DNA of 41,751 nt from Gaiellaceae bacterium (GTDB lineage: Bacteria > Actinomycetota > Thermoleophilia > Gaiellales > Gaiellaceae). Below, piece by piece: positions 2,094 to 20,987 of the stretch; positions within the stretch are counted from its first letter, which is position 1; each line of letters begins with the position of its first letter. Made by a program: the position numbers and the translations under genes. The notes beneath the pieces are model-generated. The model was not told where the DNA came from, did not search any database, and was given only the letters and a program-made list of their open reading frames with translations. The DNA is taken from positions 1 through 41,751 of the forward strand of contig JBGPLW010000001.1 of the NCBI GenBank assembly GCA_041486645.1. Reading direction: 5' to 3'.

Positions 2094-2097
2094 GCAC

Positions 2098-3006
2098 ATG
2101 CTGCTTCTGATCATCGCCTCCGCCTGCTTCGCCGGCTCCGTGTACGTCCTCGGCCAGGTTGCGACGCAGCCCGAGCGCGAGCGGCGCTCACTGGTGCGGC
2201 GAGCCGCGCATTACGGCGCCGTCCGCACCGCCGCCTCTCGCGAAGAGCGGCTCTCGCTGCGCGAGCGCGTCGTGGTGCCCGCAGCGGCGCGGATCGCGCA
2301 GGCGATGCTGCGACTGAACCGCCGCGAGAATCTCGAGCAGGTGCAGCAGCGCTTGCTCGCCGCCGGCCTCAGCTCGGTGTCGCCGAGCAGCTTCCTCGCG
2401 ACGAAGGCTCTGCTCGCCGTCGGCGGCGGTCTCTTCGGCCTGGTGATCTGGGTCGGGACCGGAAGCGCCATGGGTTTCCTGATGCTCGTCGGCACGGCCG
2501 GGATCGGCTACATGGCCCCGAGCTTCGTCGTCGGCTCGCGCGTCCGCCGGCGCCGTGACGCCGTGCAGGCCGCCCTTCCGGACGCACTCGATCTCCTCGC
2601 AGTCAGCGTCGAGGCAGGACTCGGCTTCGACGCCGCGATCTCGAAGCTGGTCGAGCACATGGACGGGCCTCTGATCGACGAGTTCGGTCTCGCACTCAGC
2701 GAGATGCGCGTCGGTGAGGCGCGGCAGGACGCGCTGAAGAAGCTGTCGGCGCGCATCGACTCGCCGGAGCTCGGAGCGTTCGTGCGCGCGATCATCCAGG
2801 CAGACCAGCTCGGCATCTCACTCGGGCGCATCCTGCGCGTGCAGGCCGTCGACTCGCGCCTGAAGCGGCAGACCGCCGCCGAGGAGAAGGCGATGAAAGC
2901 GCCGATCAAGATGCTGTTCCCGACCGTCGTCTTCATCTTCCCGGCGATGTTCATCGTCATTCTCGGGCCGGCAATGCTCAACCTCGCGAAGGTCTTCAAG
3001 CTCTGA
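2098..3006 (+). CDS. tadC: TadC-like type II secretion system F-family platform protein
   Basis: Starts 4 nt after the upstream stop. N-terminal TM. T2SS-F pattern LPDALDLLAVSVEAGLGFDAAI...RLKRQTAAEEKAMKAPIKMLFP, followed by a terminal TM. Confidence 0.85.
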   Translation: MLLLIIASACFAGSVYVLGQVATQPERERRSLVRRAAHYGAVRTAASREERLSLRERVVVPAAARIAQAMLRLNRRENLEQVQQRLLAAGLSSVSPSSFLATKALLAVGGGLFGLVIWVGTGSAMGFLMLVGTAGIGYMAPSFVVGSRVRRRRDAVQAALPDALDLLAVSVEAGLGFDAAISKLVEHMDGPLIDEFGLALSEMRVGEARQDALKKLSARIDSPELGAFVRAIIQADQLGISLGRILRVQAVDSRLKRQTAAEEKAMKAPIKMLFPTVVFIFPAMFIVILGPAMLNLAKVFKL

Positions 3007-4568
3007 TGGCGGGCGCGAGGGAAAAGGGCTTTGGCACCGGCCTGCGGGCGCAGCTCGAGAAGAAGCAGGACGCGCGCTCTGCCGCGCCGACCGACGCCGA
3101 GCACGGAGAGGAGCCGCGGTCGGTCAGCGAGGCAATCGCCGTCGCCACGCTTCAGGCGGAAGGTGTCACGGAGCTCCGGGCCGAGCTTGCAGCAGCGCGT
3201 GCGCGCGAGCAGGAGTTGCGTGCGTCACTTGCCGCACAGAAGCACGCAGTCGACATCGAGCAGCAGACGGTGCAGCGCACCGAGCAGCTCGATGAGCGGA
3301 TGGCGCAGCTCGCCGCGGCAGAGGCCACCGTCGCCGCACGCGAGCGCGCGGCCGCCGAGCAGTTTGCGGAGGCAGAAGCGCTCCGCGAGGCGATCGCCGC
3401 GCAGCACGAGTCGTTCACCGACGCCGGGACCAGGGCGGACGAACGCGAGCGGCAGATCGAGCTCAAGGCAAAGGAGCTGAAGGAGTCAGAAGCAGCACGC
3501 GCCGCGGCGGCGGCCGAGCTGAAGCAGCAGACCGCGGCGATCGCCGAGCGCGAGGCCGCGCTGTCGCAGGCGGAGAGTGAGGTTGCGCGTGGCCAGGCAC
3601 AGCTCGAAGCCGGGCTCGCGAAGCTCAGCGAGCTCGATCATCGAGAGGGGACGATCGGGCAGACACAGGCGGAACTCGAGCGGCGCGAAGCGGAGCTGCG
3701 CATCTCGGCGGAGCGGTTTGCAGGCATCGAGCAGCGCGAGGCGACCGTGGCGGCGCGCGAAGTGCACGTCGCCGAGACCGCTTCGGCGCTCGCGACGCGC
3801 GAGGCCGAGCTCGCCGCTGGTCTCGAGCGCTTTGCAGAGCTCGAGCAGCGCGAGCAGGCTGTGCGCGCGCGCGAAACGGAGCTGCGTGGGCAGGAAGAAC
3901 GAGTCAAGGTCGGGCTCGTGACTCAGAGCGAAGGCCTCGGCCGGCTCGCCGAGCTCCAGGCGCGCGAGGTCATGATCGCCGCCCGCGAGGCGGAGGTGCT
4001 TGCGCGCGAAGCGCTCGGGCGCGACCAGGTCGACCGCGACTCGGAGTCGGTGGCGACGCGTGCCCAGCTGCTCGACCGGCGCGAGCTGGAGCTCGCCGCA
4101 CGGGAAGCGGAGCTGCACCGCGCCGAAGCGGCGGTGGCCCGCGCGAGCTCGGAGCCGGACGGCGAGCTCGAAGCGGAGCTCGAGGCCGAGCGCCAGCGCC
4201 TGAGCGAGCGCGAGCGCTTCATCGCCGCGCGCGAGGCGGCGCTCGTGGAGCGCGAGGCCGAGCTCGAATCGAGAGTCGCGAGTGGCGGCGTCGCAGTTCC
4301 TATCGACGTCGGCGCGCGGACAACGGCGCTCGCCGAGCAGGAGCGCGAGCTTCTGTTGCGCGAAGCGCGGCTCGAGGCCGATGGCGACATCCGCGAGGAC
4401 AAGCTCGACAAGCGCGAGGCCGCCGTGGCGGAGCGGGAGGAGAAGCTCCGGCGCCGCGAGGGCGACCTCGGCGCCTACGTCGCGCAGGTGCAGGACGACT
4501 TCGACCGCCGCGACTCCGAGTGGTGGGCGAAGCAGCTGGGCGACAAGCCGCTGCAGGCCGCTTCCTAG
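3006..4568 (+). CDS. 520-aa Ala/Glu/Arg/Leu-rich coiled-coil protein with no TM; uncharacterised
   Basis: The ATG overlaps the tadC stop by 1 nt (TGATG). The sequence is heptad-like low complexity with about 12 REAEL-type motifs (REAEL, REAAL, RETEL, RELEL...). One roughly 38-aa unit is duplicated (REAELRISAERFAGIEQRE... / REAELAAGLERFAELEQRE...). The tail DFDRRDSEWWAKQLG is not repetitive. Confidence 0.75.
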   Translation: MAGAREKGFGTGLRAQLEKKQDARSAAPTDAEHGEEPRSVSEAIAVATLQAEGVTELRAELAAARAREQELRASLAAQKHAVDIEQQTVQRTEQLDERMAQLAAAEATVAARERAAAEQFAEAEALREAIAAQHESFTDAGTRADERERQIELKAKELKESEAARAAAAAELKQQTAAIAEREAALSQAESEVARGQAQLEAGLAKLSELDHREGTIGQTQAELERREAELRISAERFAGIEQREATVAAREVHVAETASALATREAELAAGLERFAELEQREQAVRARETELRGQEERVKVGLVTQSEGLGRLAELQAREVMIAAREAEVLAREALGRDQVDRDSESVATRAQLLDRRELELAAREAELHRAEAAVARASSEPDGELEAELEAERQRLSERERFIAAREAALVEREAELESRVASGGVAVPIDVGARTTALAEQERELLLREARLEADGDIREDKLDKREAAVAEREEKLRRREGDLGAYVAQVQDDFDRRDSEWWAKQLGDKPLQAAS

Positions 4569-4608
4569 CAACCTGCTTTCAAGCAGGTTGCAGTCGTTGG
4601 ACGACTGC
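4569..4608 (+). terminator. Two abutting perfect 8-bp stem-loops immediately after the coiled-coil gene stop; probable operon terminator or RNA-stability element
   Basis: caacctgc-tttcaa-gcaggttg (4569-4590) and gcagtcgt-tgg-acgactgc (4590-4608). There is no T-tract, as is common in high-GC actinobacteria. Confidence 0.5.
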
Positions 4609-4658
4609 AACGAGGCTGAAGCCTGGTTACGCCTCCCTGCTGCGGGCATCATGGTTCC

Positions 4659-5657
4659 GTGCCCCCGCTCGACGACATCACCCGCGGCCTCCGACTGCTG
4701 CGGGATCGCATCGCCGTCGCCGCCGGCGCGAACGACGCGCTCGACATCGTGCGCGAGCAGCTCGCGCGCCCGGAGCCCGCGCGGCCGCTCGCCGACCTCC
4801 AGCGCGAGCTCGACTCGCTCGTCGGGCTCGCAACGGTGAAGGAGCAGGTGCGCGGTCTCGTCGCGTTCCTCCAGGTGCAGGGCCGCCGCCTCGAGTACGG
4901 GCTGCCCGAGGTCGCGACGTCGCAGCATCTCGTCTTCCTCGGCAACCCGGGGACCGGCAAGACGACGATCGCGCGGCTGCTCGCGCAGATGTACCGCTCG
5001 ATGGGCCTGCTCGAGAAGGGTCATCTCGTCGAGGTCGATCGCGCCGACCTCGTCGGCGAGTACGTCGGCTCGACTGCGATCAAGACCGACCGCGCGATCC
5101 GGCGGGCGCTCGACGGCGTGCTGTTCATCGACGAGGCGTACTCGCTCGCGCCGCGCGGCGCGCAGCTCGACTTCGGCCCGGAGGCGATCGAGACGATCCT
5201 CAAGCGGATGGAGGACTACCGGCACCGGCTCGTCGTGATCGTCGCCGGGTATCCGCGGCTCATGCACAGCTTCCTCGACTCGAATCCGGGGCTGCGTTCA
5301 CGTTTCGCGCGCGAGATCGTCTTCCCCGACTACACGACCGGCGAGCTACTCGAGATCACGCGCGACATCGCCGCGCGCAACGAGTACACGCTCGCGCCGG
5401 ACGCCGAGCAGGAGCTGACGCGGATCTTCGACGGCGTCAAGCGCAGCGAGGGCTTCGGGAACGCACGCTTTGCACGCACGCTCTTCGAGCAGGCGCTGAA
5501 CACGCAGGCGCTCCGTCTCGCAGAGCAGAACGGCACGTCTCTGGCCGAGCTCGGCGCGACCGAGCTGATGGCGCTGCACGCGCCGGATCTCTCCGCCGCC
5601 GCCCGCGCGCTCGGCGAGGAGACGGCCGTCGCGCCGCGCCGCCGCTGGGGCCGTTAG
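4659..5657 (+). CDS. CbxX/CfxQ/SpoVK-type AAA+ ATPase
   Basis: GTG start. Walker [10 protein letters not shown], Walker [11 protein letters not shown], and the family-typical LVGL..VK..V lead-in and VIVAGY segment. Confidence 0.85.
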
Positions 5658-6580: not shown

Positions 6581-7198
6581 TCACGATGCTGTCGCGCGAC
6601 GCTGCCAGCGCTCGTTCCAGTTGTCCCGCGTGAGGCCGGAGATGAGCGCGCGCTGGAGGAGCTGCCCCGCGTTGCCTCGCCCGAGCAGGTGCACGCGAAT
6701 CGGCAGCTCCTGCAGCTGCAGCGCGACCGTCGTCTCCATTGCGGGCAGCGAGCGCTCTTCCTCTGCGGCATACGCGGCGCGCGCGCTCGGGCGCCGGCTC
6801 ACGCGCACGTCCCAGCTCGTCACGCCTGCTGCCTTGTCCCAGCTGAGCGCCGCGGTCTCCGCCGTGCCGCTGCGGCGCACGTCCATGTTCCCGGTGATCG
6901 TGGGCTTCGTGCGAAACGCGGGGCGGCGCGCGGGCCGCACCGGCGTCGCGGGCGGCGGGGTGGGCTCGCGGTCGACGAGCGTGCGGGCGCGCCGCACGGC
7001 GCTCAACCGCTCGAGCTGCTGAAGCGCCCGTTGCTGCGCCCGGTCCTTGCGACCGCCTGTCGCACCGACGCGTGCCTTCAATGCCCGCCAATCGGGCTCT
7101 ACTCCTGCCGCGATCTTCGCGCGCGCTTCCGCGACGATGGCCTCATACGGCGTGCCGGGCGCGTCGGAGTCGCCGGGTGGGGGCAGTGCCGCTTGCAT
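6581..7198 (-). CDS. Hypothetical protein (205 aa)
   Basis: The internal ATG at 7198 (MQAALPPPGD...) avoids overlap with the divergent gene at 7253. The composition is balanced (W, D, E, K). The ORF-track start at 7588 is probably a spurious extension. No recognisable motifs. Confidence 0.45.
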   Translation of the reverse strand: MQAALPPPGDSDAPGTPYEAIVAEARAKIAAGVEPDWRALKARVGATGGRKDRAQQRALQQLERLSAVRRARTLVDREPTPPPATPVRPARRPAFRTKPTITGNMDVRRSGTAETAALSWDKAAGVTSWDVRVSRRPSARAAYAAEEERSLPAMETTVALQLQELPIRVHLLGRGNAGQLLQRALISGLTRDNWNERWQRRATAS

Positions 7199-7252
7199 GG
7201 TCACGAGCTTACGAGTTGAGCGCGTGCCGACGGCGGCATACCGTGTGAGCCG

Positions 7253-7999
7253 GTGAACGCGCGTCCGCCGTCGACGGTTCCCGAGGTGATCGCGCGGCTG
7301 CGTGCCCTCGAATCGTCGCCCTCGCGTTCCGACGGCGTTGCCTGCTTTGCACGGCTCTATCGCGAGGTGACCGAAGGCGTCGCCGCAGAGCTCGGTCGGC
7401 ACACCTTCGCGAACGGCCGCTTCCTGAAACGCCTCGACGTCTGCTTCGCGAGCTTGTTCTTCACTGCGCTCGACGAGTACGAGCGAGCGCCCGCAAGCGC
7501 GCCGCGCGCGTGGTTGCCCCTGTTCGCGCAGCGATCGAGGAAAGGGGTGGCGCCGCTGCAGTTCGCCCTGGCGGGAATGAACGCGCACATCAACCGCGAC
7601 CTGCCGGTCGCACTCGTCGCCACCTGTCGCGAGCTCGGGATCGACTTACGTGACGGATCGCCGGAACAGGGGGACTTCGAGCGGGTGAACGGCCTGCTGG
7701 CGGGGGTCGAGGCGCGCGTCAAGCGATCGTATGTCACAGGGTGGCTCTCGATTGCCGACCGGCTCGTGCATCGCTTTCACCGCATCGACGACGTGATCGC
7801 GATGTGGGACGTCGAACGGGCGCGCGCTGCAGCCTGGACGAACGGGATTGCGCTCTGGAAGCTGCGCGACGACCCGGAGCTGACGGCGAGCTTTCTCCTC
7901 AAGCTCGACCGCATGGTCGGTCTCGCAAGCCGCGGCTTCATGATTCCTGCGGACACGACGCTCCAGAGGCTCGGTCGCTTCTTCGCGAGGCGAGCCTAG
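7253..7999 (+). CDS. Hypothetical protein, possibly DUF5995-like
   Basis: 248-aa ORF with GTG start. The motif LQFALAGMNAHINRDLP recalls DUF5995 proteins, but this is from memory and not verified. Confidence 0.55.
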   Translation: MNARPPSTVPEVIARLRALESSPSRSDGVACFARLYREVTEGVAAELGRHTFANGRFLKRLDVCFASLFFTALDEYERAPASAPRAWLPLFAQRSRKGVAPLQFALAGMNAHINRDLPVALVATCRELGIDLRDGSPEQGDFERVNGLLAGVEARVKRSYVTGWLSIADRLVHRFHRIDDVIAMWDVERARAAAWTNGIALWKLRDDPELTASFLLKLDRMVGLASRGFMIPADTTLQRLGRFFARRA

Positions 8000-8616
8000 G
8001 CTCGCGGAAGCGCCGGCTGTCCGGGCGCCGGCGCACCGACCGGTTCCTCGCCGCTGATGTTCATGCGCACGAGCGCCGCCACGACGAGGAGCCCGACGCA
8101 GACGCCGATGACCCCTCCGATCGCTCGCGGCCGCGCGGCGTCGAGGGCACGCAGCGCGCCCCACGACACGAGGTAGCCCCAGCCCGCGAGTGCGGCGCCG
8201 TAGACGAGGGAAAGCCCGCGGTCGTGACCGACCTCGACGCCGAGGAGATGCCTGCTCCGATCGGGACGCTCGCTGTAGAGCCCTCCCGGCCCGGACGCAT
8301 CGAACGCCGAGATCAGCTCGAGCTCGCGCTCGACGGCCTTCGCGCGCCTCGTCGCGTACTCGTAGAGCTGTGTGTTGCGCAGCTCGTAGAGCAGGACTCC
8401 CAGCGTCGCGCAGAGCCCGAGCAATCCCACGCCGAGCAGCTCGTCCGCGCTCCGCGGCCGGCCGAGCAACCCGATGGCCGTTCCACTGACCGTCGGCACG
8501 AGTGCGAGCAGCTTGAAGCGGACGTCGGTCAACGTTCGCAGCTCATCGAGCGTGTGGTCGTAGTCAAGGCGTAGCCGGTCGCTGCGGCTGAGCCCGCTTG
8601 CGTCGCCGGTCGTCAT
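7996..8616 (-). CDS. 206-aa predicted 4-TM membrane protein, uncharacterised
   Basis: The ATG at 8616 overlaps the upstream gene's stop (ATGA, 8613-8616). Order of elements: N-terminal helix LDYDHTLDELRTLTDVRF, a TM hairpin, the charged helix YELRNTQLYEYATRRAKAVERELE, then a second TM hairpin. The ORF-track extension to 9252 is Arg-rich shadow. Confidence 0.65.
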   Translation of the reverse strand: MTTGDASGLSRSDRLRLDYDHTLDELRTLTDVRFKLLALVPTVSGTAIGLLGRPRSADELLGVGLLGLCATLGVLLYELRNTQLYEYATRRAKAVERELELISAFDASGPGGLYSERPDRSRHLLGVEVGHDRGLSLVYGAALAGWGYLVSWGALRALDAARPRAIGGVIGVCVGLLVVAALVRMNISGEEPVGAPAPGQPALPRA

Positions 8617-9626
8617 GTGGGCTTGGCGGCAGCTTGCGGCACAGCCGCGGCGAGTGTGTCCTGCGCCCAGCGCTCGCTGAAGCCGGCGAGGAAGCTCACG
8701 ACTAGCAGCGCAAGACGGCGGTCGTTGCTCGACTCGGCGGCGGCAACCGGGAGGTGCAGCAGCCCGCCGGTGAACGCGAACGAGATGGCGAGGGCGAACG
8801 CACCGCCGATCAGCGGCCGCAGCCCGCCGAGGAAGAACGCGTACGGCCGCCCGCAGTCGTAGTCGAGCGTGAACTTTCCGGCGTTGATGCGCTGGATGAC
8901 GCTGACGACCCCGCCGAGAGCGCCGGCGACGAGCGCCGCGACCGGGCCAGCCCAAACGATCGCCAGCCAGATCGCCGCGCCGATCGAGATTGCGATTGCG
9001 ACCGTGGCCATGCCGAGGAAGTAGACGATCTGCGCCTGGCCGTTTGCGGCCTCGCGGTAGTACTGCTCGGCCTGCCCGAGCGCCTCGCGCTCCCGCTGGA
9101 GCGCCTCGGCTGTCTTCGCGGCATCGGCGTGGGACGCGCGTGCGTCGACGAGGCTCAGGAGGTGCGCCGCCGACGCCATCACGAGCTGCATGCAGATCAG
9201 CCGCCGGACACCCATGAGCACGGTGCGCGCGCGTACTGCGAGCTCGTCGCAACGGTGCAGCTCGCAGGCGATGTCCGGCGAGTTCTGAGTCGCCCAGTCA
9301 CTCTCGCGGTGGAACTCGGAGCTCGGCGTCGCCCATGGCCTTGCGCGCCTCTTGTGCGTCGTCAGAGCGACCGCGCTCTCGACGTGCGAGCACCAGTAGG
9401 CGCTGACGATCTCGCCGTGGCGCCGCTCGAAGCCGGCGAGCGCGTCGTGGTACGCGACCTTGGTGGCGCTCGACACGTGGTCGTCTCGGAAGGCCCGCCA
9501 CCAATCGAAGTGCGCGTAGACGAGCTCGGAAAAGGTCGTCGAATGCGAAGCGCCGGCGGACTCGCGGAGTGCCACCTTCGGCTCTGCTGTCGGTGCTGCG
9601 GCAAGCGGCTGCGTCAACTCGGTCAC
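8613..9626 (-). CDS. 337-aa uncharacterised membrane protein, paralog 1: ~200-aa soluble N-domain + coiled coil + 4 TM
   Basis: GTG at 9626 is preceded by GGGAGG (5-nt spacing). It is homologous along its length to the 12896-13945 product. Shared motifs: IV.AYWC, H.E(S/T)DW, LI.MQ, G.LRP.IG..FA and VSFLAGFSERWA. Confidence 0.8.
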   Translation of the reverse strand: MTELTQPLAAAPTAEPKVALRESAGASHSTTFSELVYAHFDWWRAFRDDHVSSATKVAYHDALAGFERRHGEIVSAYWCSHVESAVALTTHKRRARPWATPSSEFHRESDWATQNSPDIACELHRCDELAVRARTVLMGVRRLICMQLVMASAAHLLSLVDARASHADAAKTAEALQREREALGQAEQYYREAANGQAQIVYFLGMATVAIAISIGAAIWLAIVWAGPVAALVAGALGGVVSVIQRINAGKFTLDYDCGRPYAFFLGGLRPLIGGAFALAISFAFTGGLLHLPVAAAESSNDRRLALLVVSFLAGFSERWAQDTLAAAVPQAAAKPT

Positions 9627-9666
9627 GTCGACCTCCCGTCAGCCGCAGCCAGCGATCTCGCAGAGC

Positions 9667-9690
9667 GTACGCCCTCGCCGCAGGGCGTAC
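9667..9690. promoter_or_regulatory. Perfect 9-bp inverted repeat (candidate operator) in the divergent promoter region between paralog 1 and the patatin gene
   Basis: gtacgccct-cgccgc-agggcgtac, in the 147-bp intergenic region 9627-9773. Confidence 0.4.
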
Positions 9691-9773
9691 AAGACCTTGC
9701 CGCGCGTGGCCCGACGGAGTAGCGTCGAGCGAGCGAACGGAGCCTGCGGCCTCCCAGCACGAGAGGAGACTGC

Positions 9774-12050
9774 ATGGCGACGGCCACTACGACAGCACCG
9801 TCTGCACCGGCGACCGCCGCGTCCCGGCCGCCCGATCTGCCGAGCGACCACGACGTCCGGGAGCTCCGGCTTGCGCTCGTCTGCTACGGCGGCGTTTCCC
9901 TCGCGATCTACATGCACGGCATCACGAAGGAGCTCGAGAAGCTCGCCCGCGCCTCGGCGAAGCTGCTCGAGCCGGGCAACGACAACCCATACCCGCCCGA
10001 CAAGACCGAGCACGCGTACTACAACGCGCTTCGCCGCAAGGCGGCGGCCGACGGCTTCCGCACGCGCGTCGTCATCGACATCATCTCCGGCACGTCGGCG
10101 GGCGGGATCAACGGCGTGTGCCTGGCGAAGGCGCTCGCACTCGACGCACCACAGGACGGTCTGCGCGATCTCTGGCTGACGAAGGGCGCGATCCTCAAGC
10201 TGCTCTCGCGCTGGCCGACGCTGCCGCCGCTCGCCGGGAACCGGATGCTGAAGTGGCTCGGCGGCGCGTTCAGCGAGATGGACGGACATGGGCAGGGATC
10301 GCTGATGCCGCCGGGCCTGGCGTTGAATCTGTTCGTCACGACCACGGACATCAACGGCTACAACCGGCAGATCCCGATCGCCGACCCGCCGGCGATCAAC
10401 ACCGTCGTCAACAAGCACGTGTTCGAGTTCCTCCACCGTGACGGCGTGGGCAATCTCGACAGCACGCACAACCCGGCGCTCGCCTTCGCCGCACGTGCGA
10501 CGTCGTGCTTCCCAGGCGCGTTTCCCGCGACGGCGCTCGCGGACATCCAGCATCAGGAGTCGCGCGAGAGTTTCCCGACGGAGTTCTGCCGCGTCTACGA
10601 GCTCGCCGACTCACCGGTCGACATGACGTTCTTCGTCGACGGCGGGGTGCTCGACAACTTTCCGTTCCGGCATGCAGTTCGCGCGATCGCGGGCAAGCCC
10701 GCCGCGACGCAGGTCGACCGCAGGCTCCTCTTCATTGAGCCGGACCCTGCCGCGCCAGGCCAGAGCCCGAACGGCGCGACGCCAGGGTTCCGCGCGACGG
10801 TGTGGGCGGGGCTGTCGAAGCTGCCGCGCCGCCAGCCGATCGGCGATGCGCTCGACGAGCTCATGCAGTACAACCGGCGCGTTCTCCGGGTCAAGCAGAT
10901 GATCGGCGCGGTCGAGGACGACGTCCTCGCGACGGTCGAGCCCCTGCTCGGCCTCGGCTACGACACTGCGAACCAGGCCACGAACACCGGCGCCATCAAG
11001 TCGAGCGGCTTCAGCTTTCGGGCGTACCTCGGGCTCAAGTTGCTGTCGGTCGTGGAGGGCATCGCCACTTCGGTCTCGCGGGTCATGGACTATCCACCGA
11101 CGTCCACACAGACCCTCTTCGTCCGCCGCGCGCTGCTCACGTGGGCCGACGGCGCGAACTTGCTCGCGACGAATAACGAGCTCAGCGACGCCCAGATGAG
11201 CTTCCTCCGGACATTCGATCTCGGCTACGGACGCCGCCGGCTGGCGTTCGTCATCGGCCGCTTGGGCCACTATTACGACGCCGGCGCCGATCGCGAGCTG
11301 CTGAACACGCTCAAGCACCGCCTCTACGAGCTCGTCTCGGAGCTGCAGGTCGTGCTCGAGCGCCCCGAAGCCGCCTTCCTCCATAGCTCGGTCGAGCAGA
11401 TCTTCGGCGTGCAGCGGCTGCAGCCGTACCTCGCACGCTGGCAGACAGCGGAGTTCCTGGACAGCGCGAAAGCGGAGATCGACGACCTCCGTACTGTGCT
11501 CGGGACATATCTCGACCAGGCGCTGGCGGGCTTCGGCGAGCGCGCCTACGCCGAGCTCGAGCGGCTCACCGCCGAGCTGCCGGCTGAGAGCCGAGACGAC
11601 CTTCGGGCGCGCTACCTCGGGTTCCCCTACTGGGATGCGACGACGTATCCGGTGCGGATGCTCAGCGACGTGGCCGAACTCGACGAGGTCAAGGTCGTCC
11701 GCGTGAGCCCACTCGACACGCACCGGCTCTCGGAGCCCGGGCAGGGAGCCGTGCCGAGCGCAAAGGCGAAGCTGCGTGGTGTGGCGCTCGGACACTTCGG
11801 GGCGTTCTTCCGGCGCAGCTGGCGGGAGAACGACTATCTGTGGGGGCGGCTCGACGGTGCCGAGCGGCTCCTGTGGCTGATCGGCGACACGGGCGACGTC
11901 GCCGCGAAGGAAGCGTTCGCGGCGATCGCCGCGGAAGAGGGGCCGAAGCTCCGCAAGGCGGGGGCGTTGATCCGCCGCGCCGAGAAATACGCAAACGGGG
12001 ATCTTGACGAGGCGCCGCTCTCGGCGGATCATCGGCTGACACCCATATAG
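9774..12050 (+). CDS. Patatin-like phospholipase with a long C-terminal extension (DUF3376 / TIGR03607-type architecture)
   Basis: RBS GAGAGGAG lies upstream of the ATG. Motifs present: oxyanion-region LVCYGGVSLAIYMHG, nucleophile elbow SGTSAGGING (GxSxG) and catalytic Asp motif FVDGGVLDNFP. The C-terminal WRENDYLWGRLDGAERL is typical of the DUF3376 tail. Confidence 0.9.
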   Translation: MATATTTAPSAPATAASRPPDLPSDHDVRELRLALVCYGGVSLAIYMHGITKELEKLARASAKLLEPGNDNPYPPDKTEHAYYNALRRKAAADGFRTRVVIDIISGTSAGGINGVCLAKALALDAPQDGLRDLWLTKGAILKLLSRWPTLPPLAGNRMLKWLGGAFSEMDGHGQGSLMPPGLALNLFVTTTDINGYNRQIPIADPPAINTVVNKHVFEFLHRDGVGNLDSTHNPALAFAARATSCFPGAFPATALADIQHQESRESFPTEFCRVYELADSPVDMTFFVDGGVLDNFPFRHAVRAIAGKPAATQVDRRLLFIEPDPAAPGQSPNGATPGFRATVWAGLSKLPRRQPIGDALDELMQYNRRVLRVKQMIGAVEDDVLATVEPLLGLGYDTANQATNTGAIKSSGFSFRAYLGLKLLSVVEGIATSVSRVMDYPPTSTQTLFVRRALLTWADGANLLATNNELSDAQMSFLRTFDLGYGRRRLAFVIGRLGHYYDAGADRELLNTLKHRLYELVSELQVVLERPEAAFLHSSVEQIFGVQRLQPYLARWQTAEFLDSAKAEIDDLRTVLGTYLDQALAGFGERAYAELERLTAELPAESRDDLRARYLGFPYWDATTYPVRMLSDVAELDEVKVVRVSPLDTHRLSEPGQGAVPSAKAKLRGVALGHFGAFFRRSWRENDYLWGRLDGAERLLWLIGDTGDVAAKEAFAAIAAEEGPKLRKAGALIRRAEKYANGDLDEAPLSADHRLTPI

Positions 12051-12079
12051 CGCTGCGGCACGAAAACTGGAGGCAGGGC

Positions 12080-12889
12080 ATGGCCGTCATGGCTATTCCG
12101 TTTGTGCAGGCGCGCAACTTCACGCGGGGCCGGTCGAACGCGATCGACGTCCTCGTGATTCACACGATGGAGTCGCCGGAGAAGCCCGATACGGCGGAGA
12201 GCGTGGCGCACTGGTTCGCGGGCTCTACCGCCCCGCAGGCATCGGCGCATTACTGCATCGACGACAACTCGGTCGTCCAGTGCGTCCGCGACGAGGACGT
12301 CGCCTGGCACGCGCCGGGCGCGAACCACAACGGCCTCGGCTTCGAGCACGCCGGCCGGGCGGCGCAAACCAAGAGCGACTGGAGCGACGAGTACTCGACG
12401 AAGTGCCTGGAGCTGTCGGCGCAGCTCGTCGCGGAGAAGTGCACGGAGCATCACATCCCCGTCGTGTGGCTCCAGCCGGCGGACCTTCGCGCCGGCAGGC
12501 GCGGCATCACGGGTCACGTTCAGGTGTCGGACGCGTTCAAACGCTCGGACCACAGGGATCCGGGCACACAGTTCCCGGTCGAGGCGTATCTCGAGCTCGT
12601 GCGCGCCAAGATGGGCGAGTCGCACGTTCCGGAGCACGTGCACCGTGCGCGCGACAAGGCGCCCGAGCAGGACCCGACGCTCGAGGAAGGCTCGAAGGGG
12701 TATCAGGTGAAGCGCTTTCAGCGCCTGCTCGCGGACCACCACTTCGATCCCGGCGTGGTCGACGGCATCTTCGGGCCGGCGACGAAGAAGGCGGTCGTGA
12801 AGGCGCAGAAGGCGCACGGCCTGAACGCGAACGGCATCGCGAGCGCCATGACCTGGCATGCCCTTGTTGCGTCCGAGACGAAGACCTAG
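12080..12889 (+). CDS. N-acetylmuramoyl-L-alanine amidase (Amidase_2/PGRP fold) + C-terminal PG_binding_1 domain, with no signal peptide; endolysin-like
   Basis: Lies 29 nt after the patatin stop, with RBS GGAGG. Amidase_2 pattern: VLVIHTMES...HYCID...AWHAPGANHNGLGFEHAG...ITGHVQVS...DHRDPG. PG-binding repeat: GYQVKRFQRLLADHHFDPGVVDGIFGPATKKAVVKAQKAHGL. The N-terminus MAVMAIPFVQARNF is not a signal peptide. Confidence 0.88.
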   Translation: MAVMAIPFVQARNFTRGRSNAIDVLVIHTMESPEKPDTAESVAHWFAGSTAPQASAHYCIDDNSVVQCVRDEDVAWHAPGANHNGLGFEHAGRAAQTKSDWSDEYSTKCLELSAQLVAEKCTEHHIPVVWLQPADLRAGRRGITGHVQVSDAFKRSDHRDPGTQFPVEAYLELVRAKMGESHVPEHVHRARDKAPEQDPTLEEGSKGYQVKRFQRLLADHHFDPGVVDGIFGPATKKAVVKAQKAHGLNANGIASAMTWHALVASETKT

Positions 12890-12895
12890 GCGTCC

Positions 12896-13945
12896 TCAGG
12901 CTTCTTTGGGCTCGGCGTCGTCGGCCCCGCCGGTTTTGTGGAGCATCAGGCGTGCCCAGCGCTCGCTGAAGCCCGCGAGGAACGACACGATCGCGTAGAA
13001 GTAAATCGTCTTCTGCTCCGTGCCGAGCTGGACGAGGTTGCTCGCAAAACCGAAGTACAGGGCGACCGCGAAGGTGGCGCCGATGAAAGGCCGGAGGCTG
13101 CCGAGCCGGCGAACCATCTTGCGGCCGACCTCATGATCGACGGAGAATGCGCCCTTGCCGGCCATGCGTGACATGACACTGATGATCGCGCCGGCTCCGC
13201 CCATCGCCGCCGCAAGGAACAAGGCCTGCGTCGTCGGCGAGTGCCAGCGTGAGAAGTGGGTTGCGTAGAGGACGAGTGCAATGACGGCAACAAGGCCGCC
13301 GAGCAAAGCCCCCCCGCGCATCATTCCCTGGAAGTAGACGAGACGTGCCTGAGCCTCCGCCGCCTTGTTGTGGTACGCGAGGATCTGCGCGAGCTCCTTC
13401 TGATTTGCTGTGACGACACGCGCAACGTCTTTCTCGTCGGGCGGCTGCTCTGACTGGTCGATGAAGCCGAGCACCCGCTCGACCGCAGAGACGAGCCACT
13501 GCATCGCGATCAGCTCGCTCGTGCCGCGCAGAACCTCACCGATCTTCACCGCGAGCGCCCGGCTCGCATACACCTGATCGGCGATCTCCGGGCACTCGCC
13601 TGTGATCCAGTCAGTCTCGGAGTGGAAGTACACGACCTGCCGCGTGAACCAGAGCCGGCGCCAGGAACGCTCGGTCGTCTCCGTCACTGCAACACCGGAC
13701 GGCTGGCGCGTGCACCAGTACGCCTCCACAATGCGGCCGTTCGCGGCGATGAATGCCTTCAGCTTCGCCTGGTAGGTGTCCTCCCGCGGCCCGCCGTACT
13801 CGCGGTTCTTGTAGACCGCGAGCTGGCGGAGGTAATGCACGAGCACGAGCTCTGCGAACGGGACGACCTCGGGCGGCGGCTTTCGGCGCCAGAGGAAGGC
13901 CTCCCGCAGCCACCCGAACGTCGACGGATGTGCGTAGTCGCCCAC
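12896..13945 (-). CDS. 349-aa uncharacterised membrane protein, paralog 2 of the 8613-9626 product
   Basis: GTG start at 13945; an in-frame stop lies just upstream. Same architecture and motifs as paralog 1. A 20-nt identical stretch, gcccagcgctcgctgaagcc (12954-12973 vs 8665-8684), encodes GFSERWA. Confidence 0.8.
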   Translation of the reverse strand: MGDYAHPSTFGWLREAFLWRRKPPPEVVPFAELVLVHYLRQLAVYKNREYGGPREDTYQAKLKAFIAANGRIVEAYWCTRQPSGVAVTETTERSWRRLWFTRQVVYFHSETDWITGECPEIADQVYASRALAVKIGEVLRGTSELIAMQWLVSAVERVLGFIDQSEQPPDEKDVARVVTANQKELAQILAYHNKAAEAQARLVYFQGMMRGGALLGGLVAVIALVLYATHFSRWHSPTTQALFLAAAMGGAGAIISVMSRMAGKGAFSVDHEVGRKMVRRLGSLRPFIGATFAVALYFGFASNLVQLGTEQKTIYFYAIVSFLAGFSERWARLMLHKTGGADDAEPKEA

Positions 13946-14156
13946 CGCGCCGGCCTAGCGATCGTCTGGGGTTCTGGTGCGAACGGCCATGCGGATCCCT
14001 TCGTGGGGGTGCCACAGCCTTCGCCGCAGGCGACAGACGGTACTCCTCGGTTTCGGGCGGTGCAACCTGTCCGCAGCCAGCGCTGGGACGGGAGGAATCA
14101 ACCTGGGACGAATCGTCCCTGGGTCAGCCCTATCTCCGGCTGCAACAATTGCCGCT

Positions 14157-14993
14157 GTGAGCGACGACTTCGGTGCATTCCTTCGTTCTCGGCGGGCCCG
14201 GCTCCGCCCGGAGGACGTCGGCTTCGCCCCCGGCCGTAGCCGGCGCGTCCCCGGCCTGCGACGGGAGGAGGTTGCGGCGCTCGCCTCCGTGAGCGTCGAC
14301 TACATCAGCCGCCTGGAGCAGGGGCGGATCAGCCCGTCCGAGGCCGTGCTCCACTCGCTCGCCCGCGCGCTCCGGCTCGACGCCGCGGAGCGCGTGCACA
14401 TGTTCGCGCTCGCCTGCCGAACGCCCGGGGCCGAGGACATCGAGCTGCTGGACGAGGTCCGCCCGGGCCTTCTCCGGCTGCTGGAGGCCGTCGAACCGCT
14501 GCCCGCCTATGTGCTCGGGCGGTCGCTCGATCTCCTCGCCTGGAACGCGACCGCGTCCGTCCTGCTCGGCGACCTCGAGCGGAAGCTTCTGATCGAGCGG
14601 AATCTCGGGCGGCTGATCTTCCTCGACGCCGAGTTCAGAGCGCTGGTGGGGCCGCCCGAGCGCTTCGGGGCGGACGTCGTCGCCGCGTTGCGCGTCGCGC
14701 AGACTCGGCATCAGCGCGACCCGCGCGTCGAGGCGCTCATCGGTGAGCTCGCCGAGCGCTCGTCCGTGTTCCGCGTGTTGTGGGAGGAGCATCCCGTCGC
14801 GACGCAGGCGCACGGGCGCAGCACCTTCGACCATCCGGACGTCGGGTGTCTCGAGCTCGAGTGGGAGCGGCTGACCGTGCCCGGCGCCGGTGGACAGGCC
14901 GTGATGGTCTACAGCGCTGAGCCCGGCACGCCTGCGGCCACCGCGCTGACCTTGTTGGGGACGCTTGCTGCAACTGCCGCGCACGCCCGTTGA
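14157..14993 (+). CDS. XRE-type HTH regulator with MmyB-like ligand-binding domain
   Basis: The GTG at 14157 gives VSDDFGAFLRSRRARLRPEDVGF..RRVPGLRREEVAALASVSVDYISRLEQGR..PS..VL..LARALRL, the canonical MmyB-family N-terminus. The upstream part of the track ORF (from 13977) looks non-coding. Confidence 0.8.
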   Translation: MSDDFGAFLRSRRARLRPEDVGFAPGRSRRVPGLRREEVAALASVSVDYISRLEQGRISPSEAVLHSLARALRLDAAERVHMFALACRTPGAEDIELLDEVRPGLLRLLEAVEPLPAYVLGRSLDLLAWNATASVLLGDLERKLLIERNLGRLIFLDAEFRALVGPPERFGADVVAALRVAQTRHQRDPRVEALIGELAERSSVFRVLWEEHPVATQAHGRSTFDHPDVGCLELEWERLTVPGAGGQAVMVYSAEPGTPAATALTLLGTLAATAAHAR

Positions 14994-15489
14994 GTCCTTG
15001 GGAAAGCGGCTGCTCGACCCGCGGCAGGCCGGCGACCATCTCGACCGGCTCTACCGGGCTGCCTGGGCGCTCTGCGGCTCGCGCGAGGATGCCGAAGATC
15101 TCGTGCAGGAGACGTACCTCCGCGTGCTCGCGAAGCCGCGCCTGCTGCGAAGCGACGACGACTTCGGCTACCTCCTGCGCGCGCTACGGAACACGTTCCT
15201 CGTCCGCAAGCGCACCGAGGGGCGCCGGCCGCGCACCGTGCCGTTCACGGACGACCTGGAGCCTGCCGGCGGGCTGAGCCCCGAAGCGGAGCTCGAGACG
15301 CACGAGGTCTTCGCGGCCATCGCCGCGCTCCAGCCGGACTTTCGCGACGTGCTCGTGGCCGTCGACGTCGCCGGGCTCTCCTACGGAGAGACGGCGCGCG
15401 CGCTGCGGATCGCCGACGGGACGGTCATGAGCCGCCTGTACCGCGCGCGGCAGCATGTTGCACGCGCGCTCGCGCCCGTCGCGTCCTGA
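14965..15489 (+). CDS. ECF-type sigma-70 family RNA polymerase sigma factor
   Basis: Region 2: LYRAAWALCGSREDAEDLVQETYLRVL. Region 4: LSYGETARALRIADGTVMSRLYRARQHV. The start is uncertain: TTG at 14965 or TTG at 14998, just after the MmyB stop. Confidence 0.8.
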   Translation: MLQLPRTPVESLGKRLLDPRQAGDHLDRLYRAAWALCGSREDAEDLVQETYLRVLAKPRLLRSDDDFGYLLRALRNTFLVRKRTEGRRPRTVPFTDDLEPAGGLSPEAELETHEVFAAIAALQPDFRDVLVAVDVAGLSYGETARALRIADGTVMSRLYRARQHVARALAPVAS

Positions 15490-15492
15490 GGC

Positions 15493-16278
15493 TCAGAACG
15501 GGACGGCTCCCTTGCCCTTCCAGGCTGCAAGCTTCAGCAGCACGCCGCGTGGGACAGCGGAGCCGGAGAGCACGCAGGTTCGGCCGCCGCGAAGCCACGT
15601 GACGACGAGACGTCCGTGCACGGTGAAGGTGTGTAGCTCGGTGCCGTTGCGCTCGACGAGGGTTGTCCCGCGCGGAACGCGGAGTGCGGCCCCGTCGATG
15701 ATCGTGTAGCCGATTCGGTGGCCTTCTTTTCCGTAGAAGACCGTCCCCGTTCGGCGTCCCCCAAGCGTGTCGGTTCGCATCCCGGTCGCCTTCCAGCCGA
15801 ACTTCGTCTCCCAGTTCGGGAACGCGACTCCTCCGATGGCGTGCGCGAGCAGCTTCGGCTGCGCGGGCTGTGGTGTCGGCGGAGCACCGGTCGCCGCGCG
15901 GCCCGAGAGCTGCGCGGCCGCCGCGAGGCTCGGGCCGCCCGCGCCGCCGGGTAGCACGAGGAAGAGTGCGAGCGCCGTTACGGCAGCAACCGCCAGCCCC
16001 GTCCCGAGCTGGGTCCGGCGACGGCGGGGAGAGCGCCGCTCGGCGCCGATGCGAGCCCGAAGGCCCGACGGAGCCTCGACCGTTGCGCTCACGCTGCGGA
16101 CGAGGGTGAGGGCGCACTCCTGCTCGGCAAGCCGAGCGGCGAGCTCGGGCGACGCCGCAACCGACGCCTCGACCGCTGCCTGGCGCTCCGGCGCCAGCGA
16201 ACCGTCGGCGAGCGCAGCGAGCTCGATCGGTTCGTCGTCAGGTGCTTCGGCGCTTCTCCGGTTCTTCAGTAAGAACAC
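15493..16278 (-). CDS. Putative membrane-spanning anti-sigma factor (no zinc-finger Cys motif)
   Basis: N-terminal LAALADGSLAPERQAAVEASVAASPELAARLAEQ resembles anti-sigma N-domains. There is a single TM (GTGLAVAAVTALALFLVL) and an extracytoplasmic beta-rich C-domain. The GTG start at 16278 is chosen; 16389 is possible. Confidence 0.6.
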   Translation of the reverse strand: MFLLKNRRSAEAPDDEPIELAALADGSLAPERQAAVEASVAASPELAARLAEQECALTLVRSVSATVEAPSGLRARIGAERRSPRRRRTQLGTGLAVAAVTALALFLVLPGGAGGPSLAAAAQLSGRAATGAPPTPQPAQPKLLAHAIGGVAFPNWETKFGWKATGMRTDTLGGRRTGTVFYGKEGHRIGYTIIDGAALRVPRGTTLVERNGTELHTFTVHGRLVVTWLRGGRTCVLSGSAVPRGVLLKLAAWKGKGAVPF

Positions 16279-16339
16279 CTCGATCGCAAATGATGCCGCG
16301 GGCCCGCAGTTTATTCCCGGAGATCGTCGCGGTCGCGCG

Positions 16340-16364
16340 GGAATATCCGCGGCCGAGCGGAGTC
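16340..16364 (+). promoter_or_regulatory. Possible ECF-type promoter (GGAAT-N17-GTC) upstream of the RTX-like gene
   Basis: GGAATA at 16340-16345 and GTC at 16362-16364, about 45 nt upstream of ATG 16409. The GGAATA is one arm of an 8-bp inverted repeat, tattcccg (16312-16319) / cgggaata (16338-16345). Confidence 0.3.
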
Positions 16365-16408
16365 CTTGTGCAGGACGGAAGACATCCACTCATGAGGAGA
16401 CATGCGAA

Positions 16409-18373
16409 ATGCGTTGGCACAAGCACATCCTGATCGGCGCGGCCGTGGTGTTCGTTGCGGCTGCGACGGCCGGGCCCACGTTCGCTTCGGCGAAGAAGGA
16501 CAAAGTCAAGGCGAAAGTTCAGAACGGCACCCTCACGGTCACCGGATCGACTGGGAACGACGTCATCACCTTGCGACTGGCCGCGGGCGACCCGACGACG
16601 CTCGAGGTCGAGGCCGACGGCAAGAAGTCGGAGGAGCTCAGCTTCAAGCGCAGCAGGTTCGACGCGATCGTCGTCGATGCGGGAGGCGGTGACGACACCG
16701 TCTCGATCGACGAGAGCAACGGCGTCTTCACGGACACGGAGGCGACGACGCTCGACGGCGGCGACGGCAACGACACGCTCCGTGGCGGCTCCTTCGCCGA
16801 GACCTTGATCGGCGGCGCCGGCAACGACACGGTCGACGGGAATCGCGGCAGTGACACGGCGTTCCTGGGCGCGGGCGACGACACGTTCGTCTGGGACCCG
16901 GGCGACGGTAGCGACGTGGTCGAGGGTCAGGCGGGTAGCGACACGATGCTGTTCAACGGCTCCAATGCGGGCGAGCACATCGATCTGTCCGCGAACGGGT
17001 CGCGGTTGCGGCTGTTCCGTGATGTCGCGAACATCACGATGGACACGAACGGTGTCGAGACCGTCGATGTCAACGCGCGCGGCGGCGCCGACACGCTGAC
17101 CGTGAACGATCTGAGCGGGACGGACGTGACGAGCGTCAAGACTGACCTCGGCGTGAACGGCGGCGGCGACGGCTCGGCCGACCAGGTGATCGTCAACGGC
17201 ACGGCGGCGGCCGACCGCGTGCAGATCGCTTCGGCGGGCGGCGAGACGGAGGTCTCCGGGCTCGCGGCGACCGTTGCCGTGTCAAACGCGGAGGCGTCGG
17301 ACACGCTGGCCGTCAACGGCCTCGCCGGCGATGACCGGATCGCGTCCGAGGCTGCTCAGCCGCTGGCGGTGCAGATCGACGGCGGCGACGGCGTCGACAC
17401 CGCGGTCGCGCAGGGCTCGAACGCGAACGACACGATCCAGGTTGCAGCCGCGGCTCCGGCCGTGCGCGTCTTCTCGATCGGTGCTGCCGGTTTCGTACAG
17501 GCGCAGGCCGAAGACCTCGTGGTCAGCGGTCTCGCCGGCGACGACTCGATCAGCGCCGGCAACGGCCTCGCGGGTCTCGCCGCGCTGACGATCGACGGCG
17601 GCGACGGCAACGACACGATCGCGGGCGGTGACGGTGCCGACCTGCTGATCGGCGGCGCCGGCAACGACACGGTCGACGGCAACCGCGGCAGTGACACGGC
17701 GTTCCTCGGTGCGGGCGACGACACGTTCGTCTGGGATCCGGGCGACGGCAGCGACGTCGTCGAGGGCCAGGCAGGGAACGACACGATGCTGTTCAACGGC
17801 TCGAACGCGGGCGAGAAGATCGACCTGTCCGCGAACGGCTCACGGCTGCGCCTGTTCCGTGACGTCGGGAACATCACGATGGACACGAACGGCGTCGAGA
17901 CCGTTGATGTCAACCTGCTCGGCGGTGCCGACACGCTGACCGTGCACGACCTCAGTGGAACCGACGTGACGAGCGTCAAGACCGACCTCGCAGTGAACGG
18001 CGGCGGCGACGGCTCGTCCGATCAGGTGGTTGTCGACGGCACGAACGGCAACGACGCGATCACCGTCGCCGGGAGCAACGGCTCGGCGACCGTGTCCGGT
18101 CTCGCGGCCGGCGTCACGATCACCGGTGCCGAGCCCAGCCTCGACGGCCTCACGGTCAATGCGCTCGGAGGCGACGACGCGGTCACCGCATCCGCTCTTG
18201 CGGCGAACGCGCTCAAGCTCACCGTCGACGGTGGCGACGGAGCCGATGTGCTGGTCGGCGGCGCGGGTGACGACGTGCTGCTCGGCGGCGCGGGCGACGA
18301 CATCCTCATCGGCGGGCCGGGGCTCGACACGCTCGACGGCGGTCCCGGGGCCAACATCCTGATCCAGGACTGA
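16409..18373 (+). CDS. Secreted calcium-binding protein with RTX/hemolysin-type Gly-Asp repeats
   Basis: RBS AGGAGA lies 8 nt upstream of the ATG. Signal peptide: MRWHKHILIGAAVVFVAAATAGPTFASA. There are many GGxGxD-type repeats (GGDGNDTL, GGAGNDTVDG, GGAGDDVLLGGAGDDILIGGPGLDTLDGG). The upstream 642 nt of the track ORF is antisense to the anti-sigma gene. Confidence 0.88.
   Translation: MRWHKHILIGAAVVFVAAATAGPTFASAKKDKVKAKVQNGTLTVTGSTGNDVITLRLAAGDPTTLEVEADGKKSEELSFKRSRFDAIVVDAGGGDDTVSIDESNGVFTDTEATTLDGGDGNDTLRGGSFAETLIGGAGNDTVDGNRGSDTAFLGAGDDTFVWDPGDGSDVVEGQAGSDTMLFNGSNAGEHIDLSANGSRLRLFRDVANITMDTNGVETVDVNARGGADTLTVNDLSGTDVTSVKTDLGVNGGGDGSADQVIVNGTAAADRVQIASAGGETEVSGLAATVAVSNAEASDTLAVNGLAGDDRIASEAAQPLAVQIDGGDGVDTAVAQGSNANDTIQVAAAAPAVRVFSIGAAGFVQAQAEDLVVSGLAGDDSISAGNGLAGLAALTIDGGDGNDTIAGGDGADLLIGGAGNDTVDGNRGSDTAFLGAGDDTFVWDPGDGSDVVEGQAGNDTMLFNGSNAGEKIDLSANGSRLRLFRDVGNITMDTNGVETVDVNLLGGADTLTVHDLSGTDVTSVKTDLAVNGGGDGSSDQVVVDGTNGNDAITVAGSNGSATVSGLAAGVTITGAEPSLDGLTVNALGGDDAVTASALAANALKLTVDGGDGADVLVGGAGDDVLLGGAGDDILIGGPGLDTLDGGPGANILIQD
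16752..17205 (+). repeat. Copy 1 of an intragenic direct repeat (~450 nt, offset exactly 840 nt)
   Basis: Aligns colinearly with 17592-18045. By eye it is about nine-tenths identical, with long exact runs such as gatcggcggcgccggcaacgacacggtcgacgg and acatcacgatggacacgaacgg. Confidence 0.85.
17592..18045 (+). repeat. Copy 2 of the intragenic direct repeat
   Basis: See copy 1. It encodes LIGGAGNDTVDGNRGSDTAFLGAGDDTFVWDPGDGSDVVEGQAG.DTMLFNGSNAGE.IDLSANGSRLRLFRDV.NITMDTNGVETVDVN in both copies. Confidence 0.85.
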
Positions 18374-20129: not shown

Positions 20130-20176
20130 TCCGTGGCGACGCGTGCGGCTGCCCTTGGGCCGGCTTGCGGCCACGC

Positions 20177-20914: not shown

Positions 20915-20987
20915 TGGGCCGGGCAGGGATCGAACCTGCGACCTTGGGATTAAAAGTCCCCTGCTCTACCAACTGAGCTACCGGCCC
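20915..20987 (-). tRNA. tRNA-Lys (anticodon UUU)
   Basis: The reverse complement folds as a cloverleaf: acceptor GGGCCGG/CCGGCCC, D-arm GCTCAGTTGGTAGAGC, anticodon loop CTTTTAA, T-arm GCAGGTTCGATCCCTGC. CCA is not encoded. Confidence 0.93.

Follow-up and report, generated by a model that had tools for sequence, protein, structure and literature searches.

Positions 7253–13945 of the DNA analysed here, a 41 751 bp stretch of contig JBGPLW010000001.1 from the Gaiellaceae bacterium assembly GCA_041486645.1 (the whole stretch is called the window below), carry the genes for two paralogous membrane proteins of a family that we call F, together with genes for another membrane protein, a patatin-like phospholipase, an endolysin-like amidase and a DUF5995 protein. 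Sequence comparisons and gene order in other genomes indicate that these genes do form a module, which is conserved and has yet to be named. F1, the first paralog (337 aa; 8613–9626, minus strand), was recognised by its match to an F hidden Markov model (HMM), and its gene overlaps in an ATGA that of TM4 (206 aa; 7996–8616, minus strand), a multi-pass membrane protein of an unnamed family that was identified from its open reading frame (ORF) and hydropathy. The two genes are translationally coupled. Across a divergent control region of 147 bp (9627–9773), the plus strand encodes a leaderless patatin-like phospholipase of the TIGR03607/DUF3376 type (758 aa; 9774–12050) and, after a 29 nt gap that includes a GGAGG ribosome-binding site, a leaderless N-acetylmuramoyl-L-alanine amidase with Amidase_2 and PG_binding_1 domains (269 aa; 12080–12889). 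F2, the second paralog (349 aa; 12896–13945, minus strand), is convergent on the amidase gene. A first-pass annotation, made from the sequence of the window, had listed these genes, and ORF and domain HMM searches placed all of them where it had put them. Its list was incomplete, as it overlooked the gene for the DUF5995 protein (248 aa; 7253–7999, plus strand; 204.6 bits against Pfam DUF5995), which belongs to the module and converges with TM4 so that the stop codons of the two genes overlap.

The patatin scores above the gathering thresholds of Pfam Patatin (59 bits) and DUF3376 (90 bits), reaches 495.8 bits against TIGR03607 (cut-off 262.45 bits), and has intact GTSAG (aa 106–110) and DGG (aa 289–291) motifs. 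Hydropathy analysis revealed no transmembrane (TM) segment or signal peptide in it, and a PDB sequence search returned no match. The amidase also exceeds the gathering thresholds of both of its domains (72.4 bits for Amidase_2 and 53.1 bits for PG_binding_1), and residues H28, H57, Y58, H146, H158 and D160 are invariant in a 16-sequence alignment of its family, which places it among the putative endolysin-like amidases of this domain type. The first-pass annotation had described it as signal-less and likened it to an endolysin, and further comparisons bear this out. It matches endolysin PHROGs (best phrog_12609, E = 7e-38), shares 31% identity with mycobacteriophage LysA along its entire length, and has a catalytic domain 38–57% identical to those on IMG/VR viral contigs. 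Its maximal ORF starts at 12080 and cannot be extended, the N-terminus is not hydrophobic, and the catalytic domain begins at approximately aa 20. PDB sequence matches to the amidase were confined to the PG_binding_1 domain. As this domain and the endolysin PHROG matches both point to it, the sacculus is the probable substrate. The amidase family has 1,084 homologues, more than 120 of them 63–89% identical, and no relative of F, TM4, DUF5995 or the patatin was found near the viral amidase loci in IMG/VR. Because the patatin, amidase and DUF5995 proteins contain no hydrophobic segment, and because their ORFs cannot be extended upstream, all three are made without signal peptides.

The alignment of F1 with F2 spans 312 residues at 32% identity (E = 2e-42). 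Both paralogs can be aligned from end to end with 20 homologues, and 39 columns of that alignment are invariant, among them H37, W77-C78 and H108. The family was defined by an N-domain of approximately 200 aa that holds these residues, a long helix leading into a TM region, and a C-terminal GFSERW motif. In an AlphaFold2 model of F2, with a predicted local distance difference test score (pLDDT) of 81.7 and a predicted template modelling score (pTM) of 0.72, an alpha/beta N-domain is followed by a long helix (residues 171–228) that runs into the hydrophobic TM region, and by further TM helices. The predicted architecture of F is thus an alpha/beta N-domain on the cytoplasmic side, joined by a long stalk helix to 3–4 TM helices. 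A Lys/Arg-rich loop (residues 260–286) and the fusions to nSTAND1 described below argue for the cytoplasmic location of the N-domain. When an F profile was used to query 1.84 billion cluster representatives (50%-identity clusters), 3,634 of them matched at E ≤ 1e-3, 545 of these with E ≤ 1e-30. F1 and F2 had no significant match in Pfam, NCBIfam, PADLOC or PHROG (the best PHROG for F1 was at E = 0.045), Foldseek comparison of the F model with PDB and viral models gave nothing below E = 0.1, a PDB sequence search with F gave only chance matches (E > 1), and F was absent from an IMG/VR search. No publication or database model naming F, TM4 or this combination of genes was found.

TM4 had been called a four-TM protein. 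A crude hydropathy scan found three strong hydrophobic segments (aa 34–52, 59–77 and 165–183) and one that is weaker. With an hhalign probability of 0.4% against F, TM4 is no shortened version of that protein and constitutes a separate unnamed family that has no match in Pfam, NCBIfam, PADLOC, PHROG or PDB. The membrane proteins had also been likened to holins, but TM4, F1 and F2 belong to no holin family recognisable in Pfam, NCBIfam or PHROG, have no viral fold match, and were not found in phage data. As holins are very diverse, holin-like action is compatible with this result.

The DUF5995 protein is soluble and all-alpha (AlphaFold2 model, pLDDT 80.5). Comparison of the model with PDB folds gave nothing below E = 0.1, and the PDB sequence search gave no match. 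Its family comprises approximately 3,100 homologues, the top 120 of which are 66–98% identical. A literature search on DUF3376, TIGR03607 and DUF5995 found only a passing mention of DUF5995, in one paper.

The first-pass annotation had reported a perfect palindrome in the control region between F1 and the patatin gene. It is present as an inverted repeat of 9+9 nt with a 6 nt spacer, GTACGCCCT-N6-AGGGCGTAC, at 9667–9690. However, it is degenerate in relatives, the perfect form being specific to the window, and as it is not kept there it was ruled out as a conserved operator. Upstream of the patatin gene lie the promoter-like hexamers TTGCCG (9697–9702) and TAGCGT (9720–9725), separated by 17 nt, and a 19 nt block of the 5' untranslated region, ACGGAGCCTGCGGCCTCCC, at 9737–9755. 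Hexamers and block are invariant or nearly so in the window and in four of the comparison loci introduced below (L001, L083, L084 and L085), and the segment 9697–9755 matches no Rfam family. The MmyB-like regulator gene that is divergent from F2 (HTH_31 and MLTR_LBD domains; 13977 or 14157 to 14993, plus strand) had been noted beside the module. It has no counterpart in any fetched locus and so was rejected as a member, and it probably lies outside the module. The regulator is followed by an extracytoplasmic function (ECF)-type sigma factor gene whose start overlaps it (13977–15489 for the pair).

Two sets of loci, numbered L001 upwards together with a few further loci, were compared with the window. 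The F-side set consisted of the 80 genome loci with the greatest similarity to F2, each taken with 10 kb flanks, and the amidase-side set of 80 metagenome loci centred on the amidase and labelled by six-frame HMM searches. Each set was limited to 80 loci. Genes in the comparison loci were called with a caller based on third-codon-position G+C (GC3) together with six-frame HMM searches. The loci are mostly contigs of metagenomes or metagenome-assembled genomes (MAGs) from one actinobacterial lineage, and the nearest relatives of the window are MAGs from soil that carry the label Actinomycetes, Gaiellaceae or Thermoleophilia. When the window's own patatin and amidase were used as tblastn queries, they recurred in only one of the 80 F-side loci, L001 (85–90% identity). 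Taken as a refutation of linkage, this result was reversed by clustering of neighbouring genes and by the amidase-side search. The apparent lack of linkage was an artefact, as the loci had been chosen by similarity to F2 and only one patatin subtype had been queried.

Clustering of the neighbours revealed patatins of other types beside or near F. PAT-a (approximately 355 aa) is found there in L002, L006, L012, L013, L017, L033, L059, L062 and L073, PAT-b (approximately 625 aa) in L011, L023, L032, L037 and L051, PAT-c in L068 and PAT-d in L078. In loci obtained by exact-protein look-up, a patatin gene precedes F (L221) or follows it (L222/L223). At rank 2 or closer to F, 19 of 278 genes encode patatins, whereas among the 921 more distant genes of the same 20 kb regions only 2 do (Fisher p = 7e-11, a value that ignores shared ancestry). 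Five patatin lineages adjoin F, in different clades of the F tree. Gene order varies, a patatin gene may lie to either side of F and on either strand, and the two genes often overlap or lie 2–15 nt apart. PAT-a relatives on Firmicute plasmids stand alone and are uninformative.

On the amidase side, TIGR03607-type patatin genes adjoin amidase orthologues in L001, L081–L089, L092, L096 and L158. Three arrangements were confirmed with HMMs: DUF5995(−), F(+), amidase(+), TIGR03607-type patatin(+) in L081; patatin(−), F(+), DUF5995(−), amidase(+), TM4(+) in L082; and F(−), patatin(+), amidase(+) in L083. Patatin then amidase is the order in L084–L089, L092 and L158, and L096 has patatin(−), F(+), amidase(+), DUF5995(−). 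The order F, DUF5995(−), amidase, TM4 is seen in L101 and L103–L108. F, amidase and PAT-a follow one another on one strand in L112 and L114, and PAT-a is divergent from the amidase gene in approximately 20 loci. Nineteen loci extend 1.5 kb or more in each direction from the amidase gene, and 13 of these have a patatin gene within 2.5 kb of it (3 of the TIGR03607 type and 10 of the PAT-a type). F1 orthologues are divergent from the patatin gene in L001, L083–L085 and L088. TM4 orthologues lie directly downstream of the amidase gene in L082, L101 and L103–L108 and adjoin F in L001, L073, L084 and L085. DUF5995 adjoins the amidase, F or TM4 gene, in several orientations, in L001, L012, L073, L081, L082, L085, L096, L101, L104, L106–L109, L113 and L162. 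These neighbourhoods mark it as a partner that recurs with both the amidase and F, and as part of the module.

Linkage of amidase, patatin and F thus persists across at least six orders and orientations. The first-pass annotation had staked its proposal on the paralog family being syntenic with patatin or amidase genes elsewhere, and from both the F side and the amidase side this proved to be the case. The bracketing of the two hydrolase genes by a pair of paralogs is a narrower feature, seen only in the window, L001 and L084, whereas other genomes have one F, and the exact gene order of the window is found only in its closest relatives. As the linkage outlasts both reordering and the exchange of one patatin type for another, we conclude that the genes are likely to form a functional unit.

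F also adjoins leaderless degradative enzymes of other kinds, and the wall hydrolases beside it, the amidase included, are of three kinds. Two loci have a PG_binding_1+CHAP protein (L055 and L061) and one has a leaderless Phage_lysozyme+PG_binding_1+Peptidase_M15 protein (L044). A leaderless Peptidase_C1 with a gene for a chagasin (I42) inhibitor lies directly downstream of F in loci of the L003–L016 class (for example, L013:6174–7400), and an M4 protealysin-like protease with emfourin does so in L010 (11025–12426). Protealysin is an intracellular protease with emfourin as its inhibitor (PMC9505478). A leaderless 639 aa Trypsin_2+Endonuclease_NS fusion, which has an effector-like architecture, is encoded directly upstream of F in L069 (7879–9795), and a signal-less phospholipase C-type phosphoesterase and an amidohydrolase are also among the neighbours. 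The C1 and M4 protease pairs are often part of a cluster that rearranges and that also encodes a weak uracil-DNA glycosylase-like protein, a signal-less PF04185 phosphoesterase and an amidohydrolase.

In four representatives of the family, a complete F domain is fused C-terminally to an NTPase of nSTAND1, a clade found in conflict systems (PMC8195603). In both loci examined, a SIR2_2 gene precedes the nSTAND1–F fusion gene and overlaps it by 4 nt (L164:1–3188 and L165:2427–5527). These fusions place the paralog family in conflict-type architectures, which supports part of what the first-pass annotation had supposed. From their domain content, the SIR2_2 and nSTAND1–F operons look like an undescribed variant of STAND (signal transduction ATPases with numerous domains)/SIR2 conflict systems with a membrane module.

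Gene neighbourhood suggests roles for F and TM4, and the most economical reading would be that F, here with TM4, controls when leaderless enzymes act. Judged from its components, the module appears to be a system of the lysis-cassette or constant-component/variable-effector kind that is built from new membrane parts. The F family would be the constant element, its partners would be degradative enzymes that lack signal peptides and are synthesised in the cytoplasm, and TM4 and DUF5995 would be accessory parts. The hydrolases would be latent or kept apart from their substrates until a trigger causes F (with TM4) either to open or disturb the cytoplasmic membrane or to switch the enzymes on there. 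The amidase would then gain access to the wall while the patatin attacks membrane lipid, and the outcome would be a regulated breach of the envelope, serving as cell suicide, abortive infection or lytic release. Holin-like opening of the membrane by F would explain the signal-less endolysin-type amidase, while sensing of a membrane event by F, which would then license the enzymes, would fit its position as sensor in the STAND fusions. We regard it as plausible, at slightly less than an even chance, that 7253–13945 is such a conserved non-phage module resembling a lysis cassette, with membrane proteins that act as the gate or trigger for latent hydrolases of the envelope.

Several findings weigh against this reading. 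Neither F nor TM4 matched a holin family, a PHROG or a viral contig, and F has no viral fold match. The amidase and DUF5995 proteins are highly conserved (50–98% identity) and found in ordinary chromosomal contexts, which makes a lineage-wide trait look likelier than a patchy defence island. Nearly all of the loci come from one lineage, so locus counts are not phylogenetically independent. A patatin facing the inner leaflet would need no gate to reach its substrate and would have to be kept latent in another way. Six of the longer amidase loci contain no module partner, many F loci have only housekeeping neighbours (SelB/SelA, nitrilase, ParB, FGGY kinase and MMPL), and few of 150 non-redundant F neighbours match PADLOC models. 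Two of these neighbours matched phospholipase effector models (E = 1.5e-71 and 8.5e-65). Models of a 2TM effector, NACHT, caspase, CARF and a subtilase were each matched once and those of MADS components once or twice each, none of the matches being assignable to particular loci.

The likeness to phage lysis cassettes with holin, endolysin and LysB, and to the type 10 secretion systems (T10SSs), lies in a signal-less endolysin-type hydrolase encoded beside multi-pass membrane proteins and a lipid-ester hydrolase. LysB is a cutinase-like alpha/beta hydrolase, whereas the lipase of the module is a patatin. F has a cytoplasmic domain of approximately 200 aa, which holins do not, and the 10 flanking genes scanned include no phage genes. 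T10SSs are chromosomal derivatives of phage lysis cassettes that export signal-less cargo (PMC13284979, PMC10847048, PMC9527704), and descriptions of them come from Gram-negative bacteria and clostridia and do not extend to Actinomycetota. It is conceivable, though we think it unlikely, that F and/or TM4 serve such holin/endolysin-type export, releasing the leaderless enzymes against competitors or necromass. This is the main alternative, and it is as fair a reading as the self-lysis, abortive infection or membrane remodelling proposed in the first-pass annotation. The amidase might then open the producer's own wall locally, and the chagasin-like protein, emfourin and perhaps DUF5995 might protect the producer. 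This alternative is consistent with the lack of signal peptides on all of the enzymes, with the cognate inhibitors of the F-adjacent proteases, and with the recurring order of amidase then TM4, which resembles an endolysin–holin pair. The descent of T10SSs from lysis cassettes, and the high conservation and chromosomal contexts that would suit a physiological trait, also favour it. Against it, neither a recognisable holin nor a phage relative of F or TM4 was found in the searches above, and nSTAND1–F fusions behind SIR2 are not readily explained by a channel.

EACC1 systems resemble the module in combining a constant membrane component with variable degradative effectors. EACC1, which is a small domain with a single TM helix (PMC7159879), forms a pore once an autoinhibitory domain has been removed by proteolysis (PMC7159879; Evans et al. 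2025, preprint 10.1101/2025.11.14.688446). F is not EACC1, as it is approximately 350 aa long, has 3–4 TM helices rather than one, and lacks a Pfam match. Unlike the EACC1–caspase system, the module in the window includes no caspase or other protease, its partners being a lipase and a wall amidase. EACC1 is nevertheless the closest conceptual analogue, and by analogy it is a possible model for the activation of F where F stands beside proteases.

Cyclic oligonucleotide-based antiphage signalling systems (CBASS) with CapV patatin or 2TM/4TM effectors likewise employ a patatin as a latent membrane-degrading effector, but no CD-NTase cyclase was matched among the genes at 7253–14993, and the patatin of the window scores 18.4 bits against the CBASS_lipase model (cut-off 200). 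Defence systems that pair a STAND (Avs-like) NTPase with SIR2 are approached by the F relatives that form the C-terminal module of nSTAND1 NTPases behind SIR2_2. The window has neither NTPase nor SIR2, and its F proteins are free-standing. The absence of a named counterpart, as claimed initially, is supported by a search of PADLOC-DB v2, which assigned no system to the module and returned only weak patatin (E = 7e-4) and generic helix-turn-helix matches, with none for F, TM4, the amidase or DUF5995.

Taking the different partners of F together, we tentatively suggest, and hold to be rather less probable than not, that F is the constant gate or sensor of widespread polymorphic lytic-effector systems in Actinomycetota. 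It would license interchangeable leaderless effectors, namely phospholipases, wall hydrolases, inhibitor-guarded proteases, nucleases and, via nSTAND1, SIR2. The window would then hold a two-gate version for programmed destruction of the envelope or for effector release, as a cell-death, defence or secretion mechanism that has no described homologue.

Housekeeping turnover of the envelope appears improbable as an explanation. The amidase would be an AmpD-like enzyme, or an autolysin exported in another way, that with the patatin recycles or remodels wall and membrane as cells grow or divide, while F, TM4 and DUF5995 would be sensors or scaffolds of homeostasis with no role in death or attack. 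The amidase and DUF5995 families are indeed abundant and strongly conserved, core genes (enolase, MazG and SelA/SelB) are neighbours at several loci, the flanks of the window are ordinary, and one source names the amidase AmpD. However, the amidase scores 20.4 bits against the AmpD equivalog NF008758 (cut-off 143), its PG_binding_1 domain and endolysin PHROG matches indicate the sacculus as substrate, and the nuclease–protease fusion, the inhibitor-guarded proteases and SIR2/STAND are not partners expected in turnover. That the genes are independent and adjacent merely by descent within one lineage is very improbable: most of the comparison loci do come from related soil MAGs, and only the closest relatives keep the exact order, but the linkage runs through the rearrangements described above, survives replacement of the patatin type, and often involves genes that overlap or are a few nucleotides apart.

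Should regulated breaching of the envelope through F be correct, a family with more than 3,600 clusters and no name, fold relative or literature would become a handle on self-lysis, defence or leaderless protein release in soil actinobacteria, here the abundant and barely cultured Gaiellales/Thermoleophilia-like lineages. It would also reveal a non-phage way for endolysin-like enzymes to pass through the membrane, give the TIGR03607/DUF3376 patatin family and DUF5995 a first functional context, and add a new constant-component/variable-effector architecture comparable to EACC1 or to the CBASS effector sets. A directly testable set of genes results, made up of F, the amidase, the patatin and DUF5995, with TM4 as an optional member.

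The surroundings of the module are chromosomal in character. The G+C content of the window is 66–74%, and a domain scan that reached 24 kb covered 10 flanking genes, which are of ordinary types (Tad-type T2SSF, EamA, ECF sigma factor, RTX protein, histidine kinase and DUF2339). No phage genes were among these 10, in agreement with the first-pass annotation. A prophage or genomic island was considered and set aside, as these 10 genes include no phage gene and the nearest tRNA genes are at least 7 kb away. An Rfam scan of the window returned three dispersed tRNA genes and nothing else: Lys-TTT (20915–20987), Val-TAC (24104–24176) and Glu-TTC (27214–27286, minus strand). None adjoins the module. 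At 231–3006 on the plus strand are two T2SSF (TadB/TadC-like) genes, the first with a VWA domain fused at its N-terminus. Two minus-strand ORFs, of 593 aa (3486–5267) and 207 aa (6581–7204), have coding-like GC3 and no Pfam match. Beyond the ECF-type sigma factor gene, the plus strand encodes an 868 aa protein with C-terminal RTX calcium-binding repeats (15767–18373) and, adjoining it, a CHASE3-PAS histidine kinase (18435–20180). A DUF2339 membrane protein of 936 aa (21208–24018, minus strand) is encoded 7 kb from the module, and another DUF2339 protein is found directly downstream of F in L024 (11249–13909), which may be a coincidence.

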